Assembly (NCBI GenBank): GCA_049297675.1
Contig: JBAQUS010000004.1
Coordinates: 13,188-77,187, forward strand
Length of the DNA stretch: 64,000 nucleotides
Direction: 5' to 3'
Source of the DNA: Minisyncoccia bacterium
Lineage (GTDB): Bacteria > Patescibacteriota > Minisyncoccia > Phycocordibacterales > DATDWN01
Under the pieces are notes generated by a model that did no database searches, had not been told where the DNA came from, and was given only the letters and a program-made list of their open reading frames with translations. Below are positions 2,899 to 51,899 of the stretch, piece after piece. The translations under genes and the position numbers were made by a program. The number at the start of each line of letters is the position of its first letter. Position 1 is the stretch's first letter.

Positions 2899-3768
2899 TT
2901 ATTTAACTATCATTTCTAAAAATTTAGAAAGTGAGATGAATGCTGCAGCGGCTTTTTTGTGACCATTTCCTCCCAAAATCTGAGCCAAGGTCAAGGCGTT
3001 TGGCTCATGACCATCTCTTCCTCGAAAACTTATTTTGACAGTGTTACCACTTATTCCAAATATACCTACGGTTTTGTTTTGTTGGCTAGAGAGAATATTT
3101 CCTCCAACCGATCTCAAACCAGAGTCAATGTTGTAAACTGGGACTTCAAAATCACCTATTTTTATAGTAATTGGCAGTTTCTCGAGCTCTTTAGTCAGCC
3201 TCTTGTCTTCGTATATGGATATCATTCTACCCTTATCCTTTTTTTCATCTAAATCAGAATTTATCAAACCAGCTACAGCTTTTGAATCATTTTGAAATAT
3301 TGATAAATAATTCCCCATATCTTTTGTATCATCTCTGTATTTCAACTTAAACAAGTCAGCATCTTCAACCAGTTTTATTAGTTCTGGAACTTCATCATCA
3401 GGGAAAAAATATGACCATGATAATGATGCCCCCGACTTATCATTATCAAAAATGAAAGTGAAATTTTTGTTTTCAATCGCCAACTTTTCGTATTCTTCCT
3501 TTGCACCTATATGATGATCTATTGATGTAACCTTAAAACCTAGACTCAAAATTTCCTTAACGCCCAAAACATTATCAACTGTATAGACATCTGTGCCTTC
3601 ATCAATCAAAGACAAAATATTCTCCAACTCTTCCCTCGTGTGTGAGTGAGATAGTGGAAAAACTTTTGCCTCAGGAAATTTCCTCAAAACCACCGCTCCG
3701 GCAGTTGTCCCGTCATTGCAATCCTTATGATATATGGCTATTACTTTTTTCATGATTTTTTCCTCCAT
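2899..3768 (-). CDS. DHH/DHHA1 phosphoesterase (NrnA-like nanoRNase/pAp phosphatase)
   Basis: DHH motif (SIDHHIGA) and N-terminal Asp-rich motifs (HKDCNDGTTAG). C-terminal DHHA1 GGNGHKKAAAA. Confidence 0.65.
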   Translation of the reverse strand: MEEKIMKKVIAIYHKDCNDGTTAGAVVLRKFPEAKVFPLSHSHTREELENILSLIDEGTDVYTVDNVLGVKEILSLGFKVTSIDHHIGAKEEYEKLAIENKNFTFIFDNDKSGASLSWSYFFPDDEVPELIKLVEDADLFKLKYRDDTKDMGNYLSIFQNDSKAVAGLINSDLDEKKDKGRMISIYEDKRLTKELEKLPITIKIGDFEVPVYNIDSGLRSVGGNILSSQQNKTVGIFGISGNTVKISFRGRDGHEPNALTLAQILGGNGHKKAAAAFISLSKFLEMIVK

Positions 3769-3789
3769 CTTGGAGCAAAACCTGTAGAA

Positions 3790-4083
3790 CTACCAAACCT
3801 GGAATATTTCTCTTGAGCCGGTCAGGTACATCTCAGTATAACCCTTCATTTTCTCCATAGCCTTTTTCATTTCTTTTGTCGGATTTTTGTATTTTTCCCA
3901 ACTTTTTTCATAAGCTGTCAGATCTTTATATTTTGAAACCATAATCACTCTGTTATATTGACCAGTCATGTCGGTCATTATGTTGACCAGATTCTTGTCA
4001 CTAGCCATCACCCCTTTAAATAACTTAGCCATTTTCGAAGCATTACCAGGCTTACAAACAAATACATCATGTACGATAATCAT
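3790..4083 (-). CDS. Hypothetical small protein (97 aa)
   Basis: Clean ORF with good spacing to neighbours. No motif recognised. Confidence 0.3.
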   Translation of the reverse strand: MIIVHDVFVCKPGNASKMAKLFKGVMASDKNLVNIMTDMTGQYNRVIMVSKYKDLTAYEKSWEKYKNPTKEMKKAMEKMKGYTEMYLTGSREIFQVW

Positions 4084-4142
4084 AATTATTTTGGTTAATG
4101 ATAATTATTTATTATACACCTTTTAGATAAATACAAAGTGAA

Positions 4143-10725: not shown

Positions 10726-11328
10726 TTAAATCCAGTTATTTTCCGTTAGAAAACCCTTAACCTTCTCATATATTTTACGATGTCCTTCAGCATTGGGATG
10801 CAGACCATCATCAAAGTCCTCATTTTCAAGTAACCCTACATCTAGAAAAGGAACGTTGTTTTCTCTACAAACCTCTTCCATTATCTTGCTATATTTCTTT
10901 ATATTCTCATTTGTGTAATAAATAGGAATCCAAGGTACTGGGGTTGTTTTAGATTCATCACAGTTTTTCAAATCCATAAAAACAATTTTGTCAGTAATCT
11001 TTTTTGCTCTTTTGATTATTTCTTCAAGATTACTCCTGAATTTCTCTGGCTGAACCATAAAATTACCTGGTTTATCATAAGAAGCATCATTACCACCAGT
11101 TTGAAATATAATTGCATCAGCACCTCTTATCTTTGCTTCATTTTCAAATCTCTCCAAAATTGTCTCTGTTGTTCCTCCAGAAATACTTTGATTATATATT
11201 TCTACATAATCTTCGTCTCTTTTTGCAACATAAAACCAAAGACGATTTACCCATCCACCTTTTTCCATATCCCAAGCGCCCCAAGCTGTGCTATCTCCAA
11301 ATATACAAATAGATTCTGGCTTTTTCAT
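10726..11328 (-). CDS. SGNH/GDSL-family hydrolase
   Basis: GDSTAWG (block I), QTGGNDAS (block III), DGLHPN (DxxH block V). Confidence 0.7.
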   Translation of the reverse strand: MKKPESICIFGDSTAWGAWDMEKGGWVNRLWFYVAKRDEDYVEIYNQSISGGTTETILERFENEAKIRGADAIIFQTGGNDASYDKPGNFMVQPEKFRSNLEEIIKRAKKITDKIVFMDLKNCDESKTTPVPWIPIYYTNENIKKYSKIMEEVCRENNVPFLDVGLLENEDFDDGLHPNAEGHRKIYEKVKGFLTENNWI

Positions 11329-12384: not shown

Positions 12385-12945
12385 TTATGATTTTAATCCG
12401 AATAATTTTTGACCCTCATCAAACAAATCGAGCATATCCTTCGAAAGAATGAGTGGGATAAACTTTTGTCTATCTTCTGGAGTAAGATTGTTTAGAGAAT
12501 CAATCTTCCAAGCTTCAAAGCCTATCGCTTTACCGGACTCGACCTGAAGGTCGCTGACCTTACCATCAAAAAGATAAACGTATTGTGAACGAATAGTATT
12601 ATTCGTAAGTTTTGTTACTTCATCAAAACTTTTCTTAAACATCTTTTTTACTAGCTTTAATTTTGAAAGATCTACATTAATTCCAGTTTCTTCTTTACAT
12701 TCTTTAACCGCTGTCTCATCATAAGTCATTTTTGGATCAACATGCCCACCAACAGTTGCATCAAGAAGATCTGGATATGTGTCTTTATCTTTTGCTCGAT
12801 GTTGGAAAACAATCTCCCTATCTGGAGTTATAAACCAAATATGAATTTCGCGATGCAATAATCCTTTTTCATGAACAGTTTTCCTTGGTTCAAGACCAAT
12901 TATTTCATCATTTTCATTTACAACTTCAAGCATTTCTTCTTTCAT
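12385..12945 (-). CDS. Nudix hydrolase
   Basis: Nudix box GGHVDPKMTYDETAVKECKEETGI. Confidence 0.7.
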   Translation of the reverse strand: MKEEMLEVVNENDEIIGLEPRKTVHEKGLLHREIHIWFITPDREIVFQHRAKDKDTYPDLLDATVGGHVDPKMTYDETAVKECKEETGINVDLSKLKLVKKMFKKSFDEVTKLTNNTIRSQYVYLFDGKVSDLQVESGKAIGFEAWKIDSLNNLTPEDRQKFIPLILSKDMLDLFDEGQKLFGLKS

Positions 12946-12960
12946 ATTTAGTATAATAAC

Positions 12961-12995
12961 AAAAAATCACCGAGTTGTATCGGTGATTTTTTGTC
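12961..12995 (-). terminator. Rho-independent terminator downstream of tRNA-Gln (A-run/hairpin/T-run, bidirectional in form)
   Basis: AAAAAATCACCGA-GTTGTA-TCGGTGATTTTTTGT. Near-identical copy at 33931-33968 downstream of tRNA-Trp. Confidence 0.7.
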
Positions 12996-13082
12996 TTGAA
13001 TACTGCACTCAGCAGGTATGCTATGTCGGAATAGGTACTTGAGCCATTTCGACCCTCCTCGGAGTCCGAAACTATCTCAAGC

Positions 13083-30298: not shown

Positions 30299-30384
30299 TG
30301 GTGCCGGGAGAGAGAATCGAACTCTCAATGGATTGCTCCGCACGATTTTGAGTCGTGTGCGTCTACCAATTCCGCCATCCCGGC
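30299..30384 (-). tRNA. tRNA-Leu (anticodon CAA), long variable arm, CCA encoded
   Basis: Acceptor GCCGGGA/TCCCGGC, D-loop AATTGGTAGA, anticodon loop CTCAAAA, T-arm GAGAG-TTCGATT-CTCTC. Confidence 0.8.
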
Positions 30385-33295: not shown

Positions 33296-33401
33296 TTTAC
33301 AGACGATCTTGTCCTGTGTGAATCCACTCTTTTCTGGATCATGAGTTTCCTAAATAGCACTATCTCCAAATATGCAAATTCATTCTGGTTTTTTCATACT
33401 T

Positions 33402-33917
33402 TCATTTTAAGATCTTGTAATGTAGCTGGATCGTATCCTCATTAAGTTTGTTAACTTCCATAAGTTTTAGATCGTATTCAAAATCAGCCTCAGAAAAAAC
33501 TTTTATTCCTTTTCCAAATATCAATGGTTCAACATCTAAATAAATCTCATCTATTAAGTTTTCTTTAAGAAAAGAACTATTTAATTGACCTCCTCCAGCC
33601 ACAAACGCTGTTTTAAAGTTTTTTGTTTCTAATAAATTCAATATATCTTTTGGTGACTTTTTTGTAATCAAAACATTGTCACCCCATTTATTTTCTATCT
33701 CCTGGTTAGATACTACAATATTCAAAGCATCTGGAAATGGAAAATATCCATACTTAGAAGTTTCTATATATGTATTTTTACCCATTATTGTATTTCCTGC
33801 TGATTTACTATGTTCGTAAAATCCTTTCAAGTCTTCTTCTTAAGTAAACTCTGAATTACCATTTTCTCTAGCAATATAACCATTAGCAGATATTCCCATA
33901 TAGATAATTGTCTTCAT
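33402..33917 (-). pseudogene. Dihydrofolate reductase-like (RibD_C/DHFR fold) gene interrupted by a single in-frame TAA (33840-33842, minus strand)
   Basis: N-terminal fragment MKTIIYMGISANGYIARENGNSEFT (33843-33917), then TAA, then in frame EED-L-KGFYEHSKSAGNTIMGKNTY... The track ORF begins at a TTG at 33830. Confidence 0.55.
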
Positions 33918-33930
33918 AATCATCATAATA

Positions 33931-33968
33931 ACAAAAAATCACTGATTTGTATCGGTGATTTTTTGTCT
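33931..33968 (-). terminator. Rho-independent terminator downstream of tRNA-Trp (copy of the 12961-12995 element)
   Basis: AAAAAATCACTGA-TTTGTA-TCGGTGATTTTTTGT. Confidence 0.65.
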
Positions 33969-34030
33969 CAAATATTGCTTTACTTTCTCGCAAAAACGTC
34001 ACATTGACGCGTCTCGTGCGACGCTCGACT

Positions 34031-34104
34031 TGGCGGGGGGTGGAAGAATCGAACTCCCGACAACGGTTTTGGAGACCGTAGTTATACCACTTAACTAACC
34101 CCCC
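34031..34104 (-). tRNA. tRNA-Trp (anticodon CCA), CCA encoded
   Basis: Acceptor GGGGGGT/ACCCCCC, anticodon arm ACGGT-CTCCAAA-ACCGT, T-loop GTTCGATTC. Confidence 0.75.
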
Positions 34105-35494: not shown

Positions 35495-35861
35495 AGTACC
35501 TTGAGATTAATATAAAATTAGAGAAAATGCAAGGAGACCAACCCGTTCGGATTGGCCTCTAGAAATCACAAACCATCGTCTGGAAAAACTCCTGGCAGTA
35601 TGAGCTGAATACTTCTGACAAATTTCTCGTACTCAGTAATGAATACATAGGAAATTCCTATGTAAGTGCCGTACGAAAAAATCCCAAGCAGTTGGGATTT
35701 GTTTCGTCGTGTGCGCCGGGTTGGAATTTCTCCCTCGCCTCTCAAGTTTGCCGTCGCAAACTCTCGGGCTGGTCACCGACTCGCGTTCGGCTTTTACTAA
35801 AGCCGAAATCGCTCCGTCGTTCGAATCCAACACGCAAAGCATGCTTTGCTCCGGCACACAC

Positions 35862-35880
35862 GAAAAAATCCCTTGCGGGA
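35862..35880 (-). terminator. Hairpin AAATCCC-TTGC-GGGATTT followed by a U-run, downstream of tRNA-Tyr
   Basis: 7-bp stem plus T-tract in the minus-strand reading. Confidence 0.55.
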
Positions 35881-35889
35881 TTTGTCGTG

Positions 35890-35972
35890 TGCGCCGGGTT
35901 GGATTCGAACCAACGAAGCCCGAGGGCGACAGATTTACAGTCTGTTGTGATAGACCACTCCACCACCGACGC
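35890..35972 (-). tRNA. tRNA-Tyr (anticodon GUA), long variable arm, CCA not encoded
   Basis: Acceptor GCGTCGG/CCGGCGC, anticodon arm ACAGA-CTGTAAA-TCTGT, T-arm GTTGG-TTCGAAT-CCAAC. Confidence 0.75.
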
Positions 35973-44257: not shown

Positions 44258-44580
44258 TGAGTAACAGAAATCAAAGACTAAGTGAAATTCTAAGAGATTT
44301 AGGTGCCCGTTTTCTGCTTCTTAATGGAAACAAATCCTCGCTTTTAACCGTGACAAAATTGGAATTAACAAGGGATGGAAAAAATGCTACTATTTTCTTT
44401 ACGGTTTTTCCAAATAGTTTTGAAAAAACTGCTCTTGAGTTTGCCAAGAGAAAAAGAAGTGATTTTAGAGAATTCGTTAAGGAAAATTCAAAACTAGGAC
44501 ACCTCCCCCAGTTTGATTTTGAAATTGATCTAGGAGAGAAAAACCGTCAAAAAATTGACGGATTATTAAATGAAAAATGA
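44257..44580 (+). CDS. rbfA: Ribosome-binding factor A
   Basis: Overlaps the infB stop. RLSEILRDLGARFLLLNG...LLTVTKLELTRDGKNATIFFTVF is a KH-like RbfA pattern. Confidence 0.7.
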   Translation: MSNRNQRLSEILRDLGARFLLLNGNKSSLLTVTKLELTRDGKNATIFFTVFPNSFEKTALEFAKRKRSDFREFVKENSKLGHLPQFDFEIDLGEKNRQKIDGLLNEK

Positions 44581-44650
44581 CCTAGTCGCCAAGTGGTAAG
44601 GCAAAGCTCTGCAAAAGCTTTATACGGCGGTTCGATTCCGCCCTAGGTCT
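44579..44650 (+). tRNA. tRNA-Cys (anticodon GCA)
   Basis: Acceptor GACCTAG/CTAGGTC, anticodon arm AAGCT-CTGCAAA-AGCTT, T-arm GGCGG-TTCGATT-CCGCC, discriminator U. Confidence 0.75.
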
Positions 44651-44719
44651 CCCTAAAACATTTACACAGTAAGTGTTTGGGTGAACAATTCATCCAGAGA
44701 GTTGTTGTAACCAAATTTT

Positions 44720-44801
44720 GCTCGGGTGGCGGAACTGGTATACGCGTTCGACTTAAAATCGAATCCCGAAAGGGGTATGGGTTCGATTCCCATCCCGAGC
44801 A
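44720..44801 (+). tRNA. tRNA-Leu (anticodon UAA), long variable arm
   Basis: Acceptor GCTCGGG/CCCGAGC, anticodon arm TTCGA-CTTAAAA-TCGAA, T-arm ATGGG-TTCGATT-CCCAT. Confidence 0.75.
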
Positions 44802-44850
44802 CAAAATTGAAATAAACTAAAATTAATGTTATAAATTTAAAGTAAAATTT

Positions 44851-44923
44851 GCGCCTATAGCTCAGCTGGTAGAGCAGATCCCTCTTAAGGATAAGGTCCC
44901 AGGTTCGATCCCTGGTGGGCGCA
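44851..44923 (+). tRNA. tRNA-Lys (anticodon CUU)
   Basis: D-arm TAGCTCAGCTGGTAGAGCA, anticodon loop CTCTTAA, T-arm CCAGG-TTCGATC-CCTGG, acceptor GCGCCTA/TGGGCGC. Confidence 0.7.
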
Positions 44924-44999
44924 CAAGCCGAAATAATCTAAACTGCTTTAGATTATTTCGGACTTGTGCGCAACCAGAATATACCTTTAGGTGATTCTG
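44919..44999. repeat. Two consecutive strong hairpins after tRNA-Lys: 44919-44972 (about 24-bp stem; the outer arm reuses the tRNA 3' end) and 44963-44999 (10-bp stem)
   Basis: GCGCACAAGCCGAAATAATCTAAA-CTGC-TTTAGATTATTTCGGACTTGTGCGC, then CAACCAGAAT...ATTCTGGTTG. CTTGTGCG recurs at 45016-45023. Confidence 0.5.
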
Positions 45000-45119
45000 G
45001 TTGAGGTTTCGGGCTTGTGCGTTATTAAAACATGTTTACTAAATAGTTTGAATCGTGGTTTCAAATTTGTGTGTGAAAGTAAGATAGCAATATAATGTTT
45101 TAGTTTCAAGTTAACAATT

Positions 45120-45203
45120 GGGCGAGTGGCGTAACAGTAGCCGCGCCAGTCTTAGGAACTGGTCCCGTAAGGGGTGGAGGTGCGATTCCTCTCTCGCCCA
45201 CCA
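45120..45203 (+). tRNA. tRNA-Leu (anticodon UAG), long variable arm, CCA encoded; atypical D-loop
   Basis: Acceptor GGGCGAG/CTCGCCC plus ACCA, anticodon arm CCAGT-CTTAGGA-ACTGG. The D-loop lacks the usual GG. Confidence 0.6.
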
Positions 45204-45555: not shown

Positions 45556-46215
45556 TTATACTTCAAAAGTTTTGGTGTCAGCTTTTACCCCGCTATTTTT
45601 TACAAATTTATAATATTCATATTTATCCTCAAATTGGTCTAATACTACTTCCCTTTTTAATATTTCCTTCCAACGATTTTCTGTAACGTAATCCTGATAG
45701 CTAGACCACTCATATTTTTCTGGATTATTACTCCAATGTGAAAGCTCTTTTGGATTTAAATGAACATACGCAGATAAATGTAGTAGTTGTTCATTACTTT
45801 CAACATGAACTGCTTTATACGGACCTTCAAAAAGATGCCCCGAAATTTTATATTTAGTATTGAAGTATTTTGTATACGAGTTAAGTACACGTTGCATATA
45901 TTTCCCAGTTCCACCTTCTTCATTTTCACGAACTATTAGATGAAAATGGTTAGTCATCATCGCAAAAGAAACTAGGTCAACGTATCTTTTCGAAATTATC
46001 TTTTCGTAATCATCACTGTTAATGTCAAACATCCGATGTTTGACATAATTCGAGATCATTCTTGAAACTTGAGGAAAAATAACATTTGCTTGAAAGTATA
46101 AAATGAGAAATAAAAATCTAATTCTATCTCTATCATCCTTGAAGATGATTTTCTTCCCAACTCCCCGATTATATATATGATAGTGTTCCCCAATTTCAAT
46201 ATTATCTCTTCTCAT
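45556..46215 (-). CDS. IS200-like Y1/HUH transposase, RayT (REP-associated tyrosine transposase)-type, paralog 1
   Basis: YHIYNRGV N-terminus, HUH motif HFHLIV, and Y-containing C-terminal helix (GPYKAVHVE). REP palindromes on both sides. Homologous to 54366-55043. Confidence 0.65.
   Translation of the reverse strand: MRRDNIEIGEHYHIYNRGVGKKIIFKDDRDRIRFLFLILYFQANVIFPQVSRMISNYVKHRMFDINSDDYEKIISKRYVDLVSFAMMTNHFHLIVRENEEGGTGKYMQRVLNSYTKYFNTKYKISGHLFEGPYKAVHVESNEQLLHLSAYVHLNPKELSHWSNNPEKYEWSSYQDYVTENRWKEILKREVVLDQFEDKYEYYKFVKNSGVKADTKTFEV
46022..46046. repeat. REP-like palindrome ATGTCAAACATC-C-GATGTTTGACAT (copy 2) lying inside the rayT1 coding sequence
   Basis: 12-nt arms. Encodes VKHRMFD in rayT1; the same peptide is read from the opposite strand because of the palindrome. 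Confidence 0.55.
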
Positions 46216-50711: not shown

Positions 50712-51071
50712 TTATAAAGAAGTACAGATCATTGACCCGATTGGACACCCTGTTTGTGGTATCCCTAGAGCAGTATTTATAAATGCCACTATTCCGAATA
50801 TAGACATTATTACGAACATACCAACTACACCCCATATCATCCTTTGTTTTCCCTCTTCTCTCAGTTTGGTATCGCCAGCATTTAGAATAAATGTAGCTAC
50901 ACCCCACATAAAGAACATAAAAGCCAAACCGAAGACGATGGGTATAAGAAGTCGAACTATATTTCCGAATTCAGTCACTAGTGTTCTTACCACGGCTAGA
51001 CTCTGGGCAAAAATAAAAACAGGAAATAAAAGTTGTGGTGCATAAATTAAAAATTTTAGATTTTTCTTCAT
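50712..51071 (-). CDS. TrbC/VirB2-like pilin paralog 4 (signal peptide ending FAQ)
   Basis: FFMWGVATFILNAGDTKLREEGKQRMIWGVVGMFVIMSIFGIVAFI. Confidence 0.5.
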   Translation of the reverse strand: MKKNLKFLIYAPQLLFPVFIFAQSLAVVRTLVTEFGNIVRLLIPIVFGLAFMFFMWGVATFILNAGDTKLREEGKQRMIWGVVGMFVIMSIFGIVAFINTALGIPQTGCPIGSMICTSL

Positions 51072-51140
51072 ATTTTTTATTTATTTCTATTTATTACTAT
51101 CAGTTATGCATTATAATACATACAACACAAAAGTACAAGG

Positions 51141-51524
51141 CTAAAATCTAATGAAAACAAAGGCAGGATCAGCATCAGTAGAGCCATTCAACCCTACAGC
51201 GTTTATAACAACACCAATGATTGCTCTTACAGATAGTAGGACAAATAAAGCAATTGTTCCCCAAAGCATATATTTTCTTCCATTTTCTATTTCCGTTTTA
51301 TTTCCAGATCGAATAAAAAATTTAGAAAGACCCCAAATAAATACTAAAACAGCTAAAGAAAGAAAGGCTGGCAGGATTGTGTTGTAAATAAGTTCTCCTG
51401 TGGTGAAGGCGGCATCTCCAAATGTGCCACCCGGAGGTATAAGTTGGGCATAAGCAATAATCGGAAAAACACTGACAACAAGGTTTGAAATGAACCTGTA
51501 GTGCTTTAAAAAAAAAGTTTTCAT
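51141..51524 (-). CDS. TrbC/VirB2-like pilin paralog 5 (signal peptide ending AYAQ)
   Basis: VFIWGLSKFFIRSGNKTEIENGRKYMLWGTIALFVLLSV. Confidence 0.45.
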   Translation of the reverse strand: MKTFFLKHYRFISNLVVSVFPIIAYAQLIPPGGTFGDAAFTTGELIYNTILPAFLSLAVLVFIWGLSKFFIRSGNKTEIENGRKYMLWGTIALFVLLSVRAIIGVVINAVGLNGSTDADPAFVFIRF

Positions 51525-51536
51525 TATTGATAAATT

Positions 51537-51899
51537 TTAACCAACAGTGATTAGTTGACTAACCGTATTTCTAACCAGCTCTGATATGGCCACAGCTCCG
51601 AGGAGAATTCCTCCGCCTATGAGAGCCCAGAGAAGTCTCTGTTTTGCCTCGCCAAGTTTTTTCTCATTACCTTGGGCAGTTACAAAAGTAAAGCCTGCAT
51701 AAATAATGTACATTACAACCACCACGGCTCCTATAGGCAAAACCACGTTGTTAAGGAGTGCAGTTAAAATATCAATGAGATTGCTTCCTGCTTTGGTGGC
51801 CGGATTGGTAATGGTAATATTTTGAGCGAACAAAACTACTGGCAAAATAATATTAGCGAGTATCAGAAGAATTTTTGTGTATTTTTTATATATTTTCAT
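51537..51899 (-). CDS. TrbC/VirB2-like pilin paralog 6 (signal peptide ending LFAQ)
   Basis: MYIIYAGFTFVTAQGNEKKLGEAKQRLLWALIGGGILLGAVAI. Confidence 0.45.
   Translation of the reverse strand: MKIYKKYTKILLILANIILPVVLFAQNITITNPATKAGSNLIDILTALLNNVVLPIGAVVVVMYIIYAGFTFVTAQGNEKKLGEAKQRLLWALIGGGILLGAVAISELVRNTVSQLITVG

Follow-up and report, generated by a model that had tools for sequence, protein, structure and literature searches.

Folate interconversion genes are widespread among CPR bacteria: folA, glyA and/or folD were found in 90.8% of 4,581 CPR genomes, and three CPR folA genes allow an E. coli delta-folA strain to grow without thymidine (Microbiome 2025, PMC11974145). The gene described here is like those folA genes in organism group, which in that study includes Paceibacterales, and in annotated function, a likeness by description only; the published genes are intact, whereas the present one is interrupted. 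Its best match by sequence in the PDB is the DHFR of T. maritima (1CZ3/1D1G; phmmer E value of 7.6e-24 over residues 2 to 169). The two proteins are of the same length class (about 165 to 171 amino acids) and share a GGG motif as well as the motif ...W/F-[ST]-S-x-E-D... before helix alphaB, although their identity is only about 32%. In the DHFR of E. coli, Asp27 forms a bidentate salt bridge to the pterin (PMC6290769). The archaeal RibD/Rib7 reductases (2AZN, 6P8C, and 5XUX) fall in the same Pfam family, PF01872, and have the same fold (TM scores of 0.72 to 0.76), and the N-terminal motif of RibD reductases resembles the “S-x-EED-L” segment of our gene; at about 220 amino acids, they are longer than its 171-residue product, which lies nearer to T. 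maritima DHFR than to any of them.

The gene lies on the minus strand of a stretch of 64,000 nucleotides, referred to below as the window, from a genome assigned to the Minisyncoccia. We consider it probable (roughly 0.85) that the gene carries a genuine, recent nonsense mutation and is a loss-of-function allele. The features on which the argument turns are as follows.

33402 to 33917, minus strand: disrupted DHFR-family (RibD_C / T. maritima-DHFR-like) gene, 171 codons plus TGA, with one internal TAA
33840 to 33842, minus strand: premature stop TAA at codon 26, in place of a near-invariant Ser (ancestral codon TCA)
33843 to 33917, minus strand: N-terminal 25 codons, strand betaA and active-site loop, from the homologue alignment and the AlphaFold2 model of homologue P0002
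33402 to 33830, minus strand: 142-amino-acid ORF from TTG (codon 30), present in NCBI MAGs as “dihydrofolate reductase”
33925 to 33972, minus strand: upstream module, from sequence, between tRNA-Trp and the ATG
34031 to 34104, minus strand: tRNA-Trp (CCA), a landmark shared with the related locus L011, from ARAGORN and Rfam

Reading frame, family and fold

Read directly from the sequence, the frame opens with an ATG at 33917-33915 and runs for 25 sense codons (MKTIIYMGISANGYIARENGNSEFT) to a TAA at 33842-33840, after which 145 sense codons continue in the same frame to a TGA at 33404-33402. The next in-frame starts past the TAA are a TTG at 33830-33828 (codon 30) and then an ATG at 33785 (codon 45). 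The original prediction had located the stop and the TTG exactly, but its upstream end, 33926, took in 9 nt ahead of the ATG. Because the window is AT rich (37% GC) and holds 59 pairs of same-frame open segments parted by one stop, the split pattern by itself means little; the split gene at 33402 to 33917 counts as real because homology continues across the stop. A second candidate split gene, at 2899-4104 on the minus strand (104 and 296 codons around a TAG), was rejected as two separate genes that share a frame and have no Pfam link. That pair encodes unrelated proteins of about 97 and 289 amino acids, each with a start of its own.

When the two segments are joined across the stop, the product matches Pfam RibD_C (PF01872) with 61.5 bits (cut-off, 24.1) and DHFR_1 (PF00186) with 28.9 bits (cut-off, 25). 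The RibD_C match extends from residue 4 to residue 162. A search of 5.8 billion protein clusters returned 448 homologues of the joined product, among them dozens of intact 171-amino-acid proteins with 65 to 84% identity at 100% query coverage and E values down to 5e-92. The closest of these are 83 to 84% identical over their full length (E values of about 1e-91), and the 25 residues before the stop align to the homologues as well as the remainder does. Patescibacteria MAGs (Uhr-, Levy-, Azam-, Jorgensen-, Zambryskibacteria, and others) are the source of the intact homologues, whose annotation reads “dihydrofolate reductase family protein.” Translation, Pfam matches and homologues thus agree, in both family and frame, with the original prediction that a lone in-frame TAA divides one DHFR/RibD_C-like gene.

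The fold was examined on P0002, the closest intact homologue (84% identical), by AlphaFold2 modelling, so that the structure described is that of the homologue rather than of the window sequence. The model (pLDDT, 94; pTM, 0.89) has strand betaA at residues 2 to 9, a short strand at 14 to 16 and helix alphaB at 27 to 40; betaA, loop and alphaB follow one another as in a DHFR-type fold. Its top Foldseek match is again 1CZ3 (E value of 5e-18; TM score of 0.86 to 0.89; 32% identity). Membership in the riboflavin pathway, as a pyrimidine reductase of the RibD C-terminal or archaeal RibD kind, was rejected, all NCBIfam equivalogs being far below cut-off for the joined product: TIGR01508 gave 49 bits against 186.45, TIGR00227 gave 34.2 against 150.15, and TIGR00326 gave 19.5 against 156.35.

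In the alignment, Asp29 of the window gene falls opposite the Asp in the “SFED” motif of T. maritima DHFR and is more than 90% conserved in the family, while G108 to G110 (AGGGQ) are invariant. By alignment, Asp29 would be the equivalent of E. coli Asp27, and the premature stop takes the place of the Ser that corresponds to the second Ser of T. maritima “WSSFED.” On these comparisons of sequence and fold, we place the gene in the DHFR/RibD_C superfamily as a T. maritima-DHFR-like member, and because the solved structure nearest to it is that of a proven DHFR, its intact form is predicted to have DHFR activity.

The stop codon and its ancestral state

The base call at the stop is repeated in separate records. 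Logan contigs of two sequencing runs, SRR28011841 and SRR28011830 (L001 and L002), match the window at 100% identity, through the TAA, for 5516 and 3983 nt. The 127-amino-acid ORF that begins at Met45 (P0051) occurs on four Logan contigs, two of them this base-compared pair, and the 142-amino-acid ORF that begins at the TTG (P0005) is entered at NCBI under four protein accessions, MFZ2522450.1, MFZ2569122.1, MFZ2715934.1 and MFZ2728631.1, which belong to three contigs of Minisyncoccia MAGs. The Logan runs and the NCBI MAGs probably share a project and a single clonal population as their source; what they establish is the base call rather than its persistence over evolutionary time. The TAA allele appears to be dominant or fixed in the sampled community, having been recovered in every available assembly of the strain.

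These records bear on one of the options that had been raised for the stop, a sequencing or assembly error that hides a true TCA codon in an intact gene. The consensus of a MAG can hold mistakes, the evidence here is at the assembly level, and the gene is otherwise perfectly preserved, all of which an error would accommodate. Since the TAA is identical across separate assemblies, however, an error confined to one of them is very unlikely; the same TAA stands in the separately built Logan assemblies of two runs, the truncated ORF recurs on two further contigs and under the four NCBI accessions, and the site (ACT TAA GAA) is not a homopolymer. Among the 5.8 billion protein clusters there is no near-identical intact version, the best full-length match being 84% identical, and pattern scans of JGI metagenome contigs found no sense allele of the strain. 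An artefact at this position is, in our judgment, scarcely credible. As a separate observation, both of the Logan contigs that match the window stop at the same base, 30402, by the tRNA-Leu(CAA) at 30299-30384, which hints at a repeat or a strain-variable junction there.

The codon that the stop replaced can be read from the homologues. In the alignment of 97 full-length homologues, the column of the stop holds Ser in 96 and Cys in 1, and the columns beside it, Thr at -1 and Leu at +4, are as conserved. The homologous loci L003 to L011 have TCA, TCG or TCT at this column, so that on the coding strand a single C-to-A substitution would be enough to turn TCA into TAA. The gene accordingly presents what defines a pseudogene of this kind, an in-frame stop within the homologous region where orthologues have a sense codon one substitution away.

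One of these relatives is a positional orthologue. In L011, a contig of a Zambryskibacteria MAG whose gene is 70% identical to ours, the order tRNA-Trp, gene, MiaA, tRNA-Leu(CAA) is the same as in the window; the tRNA-Trp (234-307) lies directly ahead of the gene (316-828), which is intact and has TCA at codon 26. The window differs from L011 in two extra genes, for an NTP-transferase and a NUDIX protein, between the DHFR gene and miaA. Among the relatives compared, the locus is common to L011 only, and the closest intact homologues (P0002, P0003, and P0009) show no synteny with the window, each having other neighbours. The comparison with orthologues from related genomes, proposed earlier as a check, found intact genes with Ser, or TCA, at codon 26 and none with a stop.

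Several observations concern the mobility of the family. The DHFR-family gene has a GC content of 27 to 30% (window positions 33400-33900), compared with 33 to 35% for its neighbours and the window mean of 37%. One close homologue adjoins an rve-type transposase, and the closest homologues lie in unrelated neighbourhoods. These features suggest that the DHFR family moves between Patescibacteria genomes, although the position in the window is conserved with L011. In contigs L004 to L007, which carry P0003 (84% identical), a gene for a 200-amino-acid GDSL lipase directly follows the DHFR-family gene; in the window, a gene for a GDSL lipase of 200 amino acids lies at 10726-11328 on the minus strand, 22 kb from the DHFR gene.

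Beyond the stop itself, no decay is seen in the gene. Scored with an HMM of the family from which the window sequence had been left out, the joined product reaches 319.4 bits, compared with 318.3 ± 7.2 (standard deviation) for the family, and ranks 41 of 98. The dN/dS ratio against intact homologues is 0.05 to 0.08 overall, where intact homologues compared with one another give 0.05 to 0.07; it is 0.04 to 0.12 for the 25 codons before the stop and similarly low for the 145 codons after it. Judged by these ratios, nearly all of the gene's history is one of purifying selection as a single ORF. Because no decay besides the stop is evident, the HMM score being average and dN/dS low on both sides, the stop itself would be recent. 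Together with the Ser in 96 of 97 homologues and the TCA in the positional orthologue, this absence of other decay favours the option of a recent nonsense mutation, and hence a pseudogene, over the others that the original prediction had listed. An absence of secondary decay would also be expected if the gene still worked through low-level readthrough or complementation between fragments, and both are considered below.

Loss of the gene could itself have been favoured by selection, with the inactive allele sweeping the population, instead of being a recent hit of neutral or slightly deleterious effect. Every assembly of the strain yields the nonsense allele and no other, the protein clusters and the JGI contigs hold no sense allele, and apparent loss is seen elsewhere in the family: among 80 species-representative loci, two (L035 and L056) seem to carry frameshifts, each giving two tblastn segments in different frames, which would mark the gene as dispensable in some lineages. 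The loci in question, L035 3001-3523 and L056 3001-3500, come from a Saccharibacteria MAG and from “bacterium MDV bin63”; they appear to be pseudogenes or assembly errors, and so to represent occasional loss, or assembly error, elsewhere in the family. Against an adaptive origin, hitch-hiking mutations become fixed in a clonal population even when selection is absent, and the family is very widespread in Patescibacteria and under strong purifying selection (dN/dS of about 0.05). We therefore hold it very unlikely that the inactivation was adaptive.

Fate of the transcript and its products

The region between the tRNA-Trp and the ATG contains, in order, an A-tract, a 10-bp hairpin (arms 33964-33955 and 33942-33933), a T-tract and TGTTATTAT. 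The last of these (33933-33925) is an extended -10-like box and ends 7 nt before the ATG. The module of about 48 nt, AGACAAAAAATCACCGATACAA[A/C]TC[A/G]GTGATTTTTTGTTATTAT, occurs twice on the minus strand of the window, at 33925-33972 and at 12953-13000, where 0.03 matches would be expected by chance. Each copy directly follows a tRNA (Trp and Gln, respectively) and lies 7 nt ahead of the ATG of the next gene, which in the case of tRNA-Gln is a NUDIX gene at 12945; two positions close to the loop distinguish the copies. We infer that the module combines the terminator of the tRNA-Trp with a promoter belonging to the DHFR-family gene. A sub-threshold Rfam match to psRNA14 falls on the terminator hairpin.

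Many of the 54 starts in the window have a TATAAT-like (TAnnnT) box 6 to 9 nt before the ATG, and Shine-Dalgarno (SD) sequences are rare, which suggests that leaderless mRNAs are widespread in this genome. Because many starts combine such a box with the lack of an SD sequence, the DHFR transcript is likewise predicted to be leaderless, or nearly so, and it would be monocistronic.

The proposed course of events begins in an uncultured Patescibacteria bacterium, presumably of the Minisyncoccia/Paceibacteria type, in whose chromosomal T. maritima-type DHFR-family gene a C-to-A change would have turned the TCA codon of Ser-26 into TAA. Ribosomes that begin at ATG 33917 would stop after 25 residues, and the N-terminal 25-codon segment would be the sole product of normal termination at the TAA. 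The full-length 171-amino-acid reductase would then not be made, or would be made in trace amounts only, and any product restarted at TTG 33830 or ATG 33785, which would begin after betaA, the active-site loop and Asp29, is expected to be inactive. By this course the gene would have lost its function.

That sequence of events presupposes that TAA terminates translation in this organism. Evidence from the window indicates that it does: TAA ends 38 of the 60 long ORFs and is the main stop codon, and on this count genome-wide recoding of TAA was ruled out. The base after the premature stop is G. In E. coli, UAA followed by G is an efficient termination signal. Programmed or tolerated readthrough, or recoding, that yields a full-length functional enzyme would fit the perfectly conserved frame on both sides of the stop, the lack of further lesions and the apparent dominance of the allele in all assemblies. 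It is opposed by the standing of TAA as the main genuine stop and by the UAA-G context, as well as by the comparative record, in which no stop occurs at the codon 26 column of any of the 97 aligned full-length homologues, and in-frame stops among 80 GTDB loci occur solely in L001 and L002, which are contigs of the window strain itself. Nor does the window offer a means of recoding. ARAGORN found no suppressor with a UUA anticodon among the 8 tRNAs of the window, and the “taa” anticodon that was found belongs to an ordinary tRNA-Leu for UUA/UUG; an Rfam scan returned tRNAs only, with no riboswitch or recoding RNA near the gene; and the mRNA around the stop has no unusual structure compared with shuffled sequences (z score of -1.1). 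Programmed readthrough, one of the explanations originally offered, thus finds no support here, and we judge it extremely unlikely.

Restart after the stop has in its favour that the 142-amino-acid ORF is annotated as a protein by NCBI. Under this explanation, ribosomes would re-initiate at TTG 33830 or ATG 33785, and a fragment of 142 or 127 amino acids would work, either alone or together with the 25-residue N-terminal peptide. At 9 nt past the stop, the TTG is close enough to favour re-initiation, and in E. coli re-initiation at short stop-to-start distances needs no SD sequence (PMC2268962). No SD sequence precedes TTG 33830, which tells against restart, although most genes of the window do without one: an SD-like match is missing at 29 of 54 starts and spans at least 4 nt at only 10. 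The weak ribosome binding site that had been noted at the TTG is thus real but uninformative, about half of the window genes having no SD sequence. Because restart at short distance needs no SD sequence and most window genes have none, some of the 142-amino-acid product may be made.

Whether such a product would work is another matter. The original prediction had allowed for orthologues that naturally start at the downstream TTG or ATG; no homologue starts at codon 30, and the shortest gene calls start at Met7 (165 amino acids). No homologue is naturally split. The TTG is simply the codon for Leu30, as it is in the intact genes of L010 and L011, so that a newly evolved restart codon was rejected. 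Mapped on the P0002 model and the alignment, the 142-residue fragment is without betaA (2-9), the active-site loop, the first turn of helix alphaB (27-40) and Asp29. In the DHFR topology, betaA is a central strand of the sheet. With betaA, the active-site loop and the conserved Asp29 missing, the TTG-started product is probably inactive. Two-piece expression by restart at the TTG, also among the options first proposed, is therefore unsupported, and we regard a working fragment as unlikely, and strongly so.

A further conceivable way for the TAA allele to be alive combines elements of both: low-level readthrough of the UAA, or restart on a leaderless mRNA with pieces of 25 and 142 residues that reassemble noncovalently. 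An allele of this kind would explain both a frame without further decay and the dominance of the allele in the population. We think it most improbable, and prefer the reading of a recent nonsense mutation with loss of function.

Genomic setting and comparison with known pseudogenes

The window is ordinary chromosome, with genes for GyrA, TopA, IF-2, SerRS, DnaX, ClpB, MurA, MurB, Pth, S1, LepB, and others. Among the 50 ORFs of the window that were scanned, there was no thyA, thyX, glyA, folD or second DHFR. If the genome has thyA without another DHFR, dependence on host-supplied reduced folate or thymidine would be predicted.

Other parts of the window drew attention in their own right. The segment at 35500-35890 (minus strand), between tRNA-Tyr and the L33 gene, has a GC content of 47 to 56%, compared with 37% for the window, and folds far better than shuffled sequences (-151 kcal/mol; z score of -7.2), with two terminator-like hairpins that flank a structured core of about 150 nt. 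It matches no Rfam family, and an intron-containing tRNA was rejected since ARAGORN made only low-confidence calls there, at a relaxed threshold; the segment may encode a small RNA so far undescribed. An IS200-like (Y1_Tnp) transposase gene at 45556-46215 (minus strand) adjoins a cluster of tRNAs for Cys, Leu, Lys and Leu (44579-45203), and a run of small genes with matches to T4SS pilins and TrbC-VirB2 pilins lies at 50712-51899 (minus strand).

The case matters mainly for annotation hygiene. The truncated 142-amino-acid ORF is recorded publicly as a normal protein, not as a pseudogene, and counts of folA in Patescibacteria would score the strain as folA positive while its gene is most likely inactive. 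Counts of this kind are made in studies that propose an exchange of folate by cross-feeding between CPR bacteria and hosts. The locus also represents one case of ongoing gene loss in a symbiont with a reduced genome.

Compared with known systems, the finding is an ordinary one. Bacterial pseudogenes that arose by a single nonsense mutation have the same construction as the gene described here: one in-frame stop interrupts an ORF that is complete in all other respects, and the orthologues have a sense codon only one substitution removed from it. In both, the stop is unconserved, and we see no substantive difference between the interrupted DHFR-family gene of this bacterium and ordinary bacterial pseudogenes of that type.
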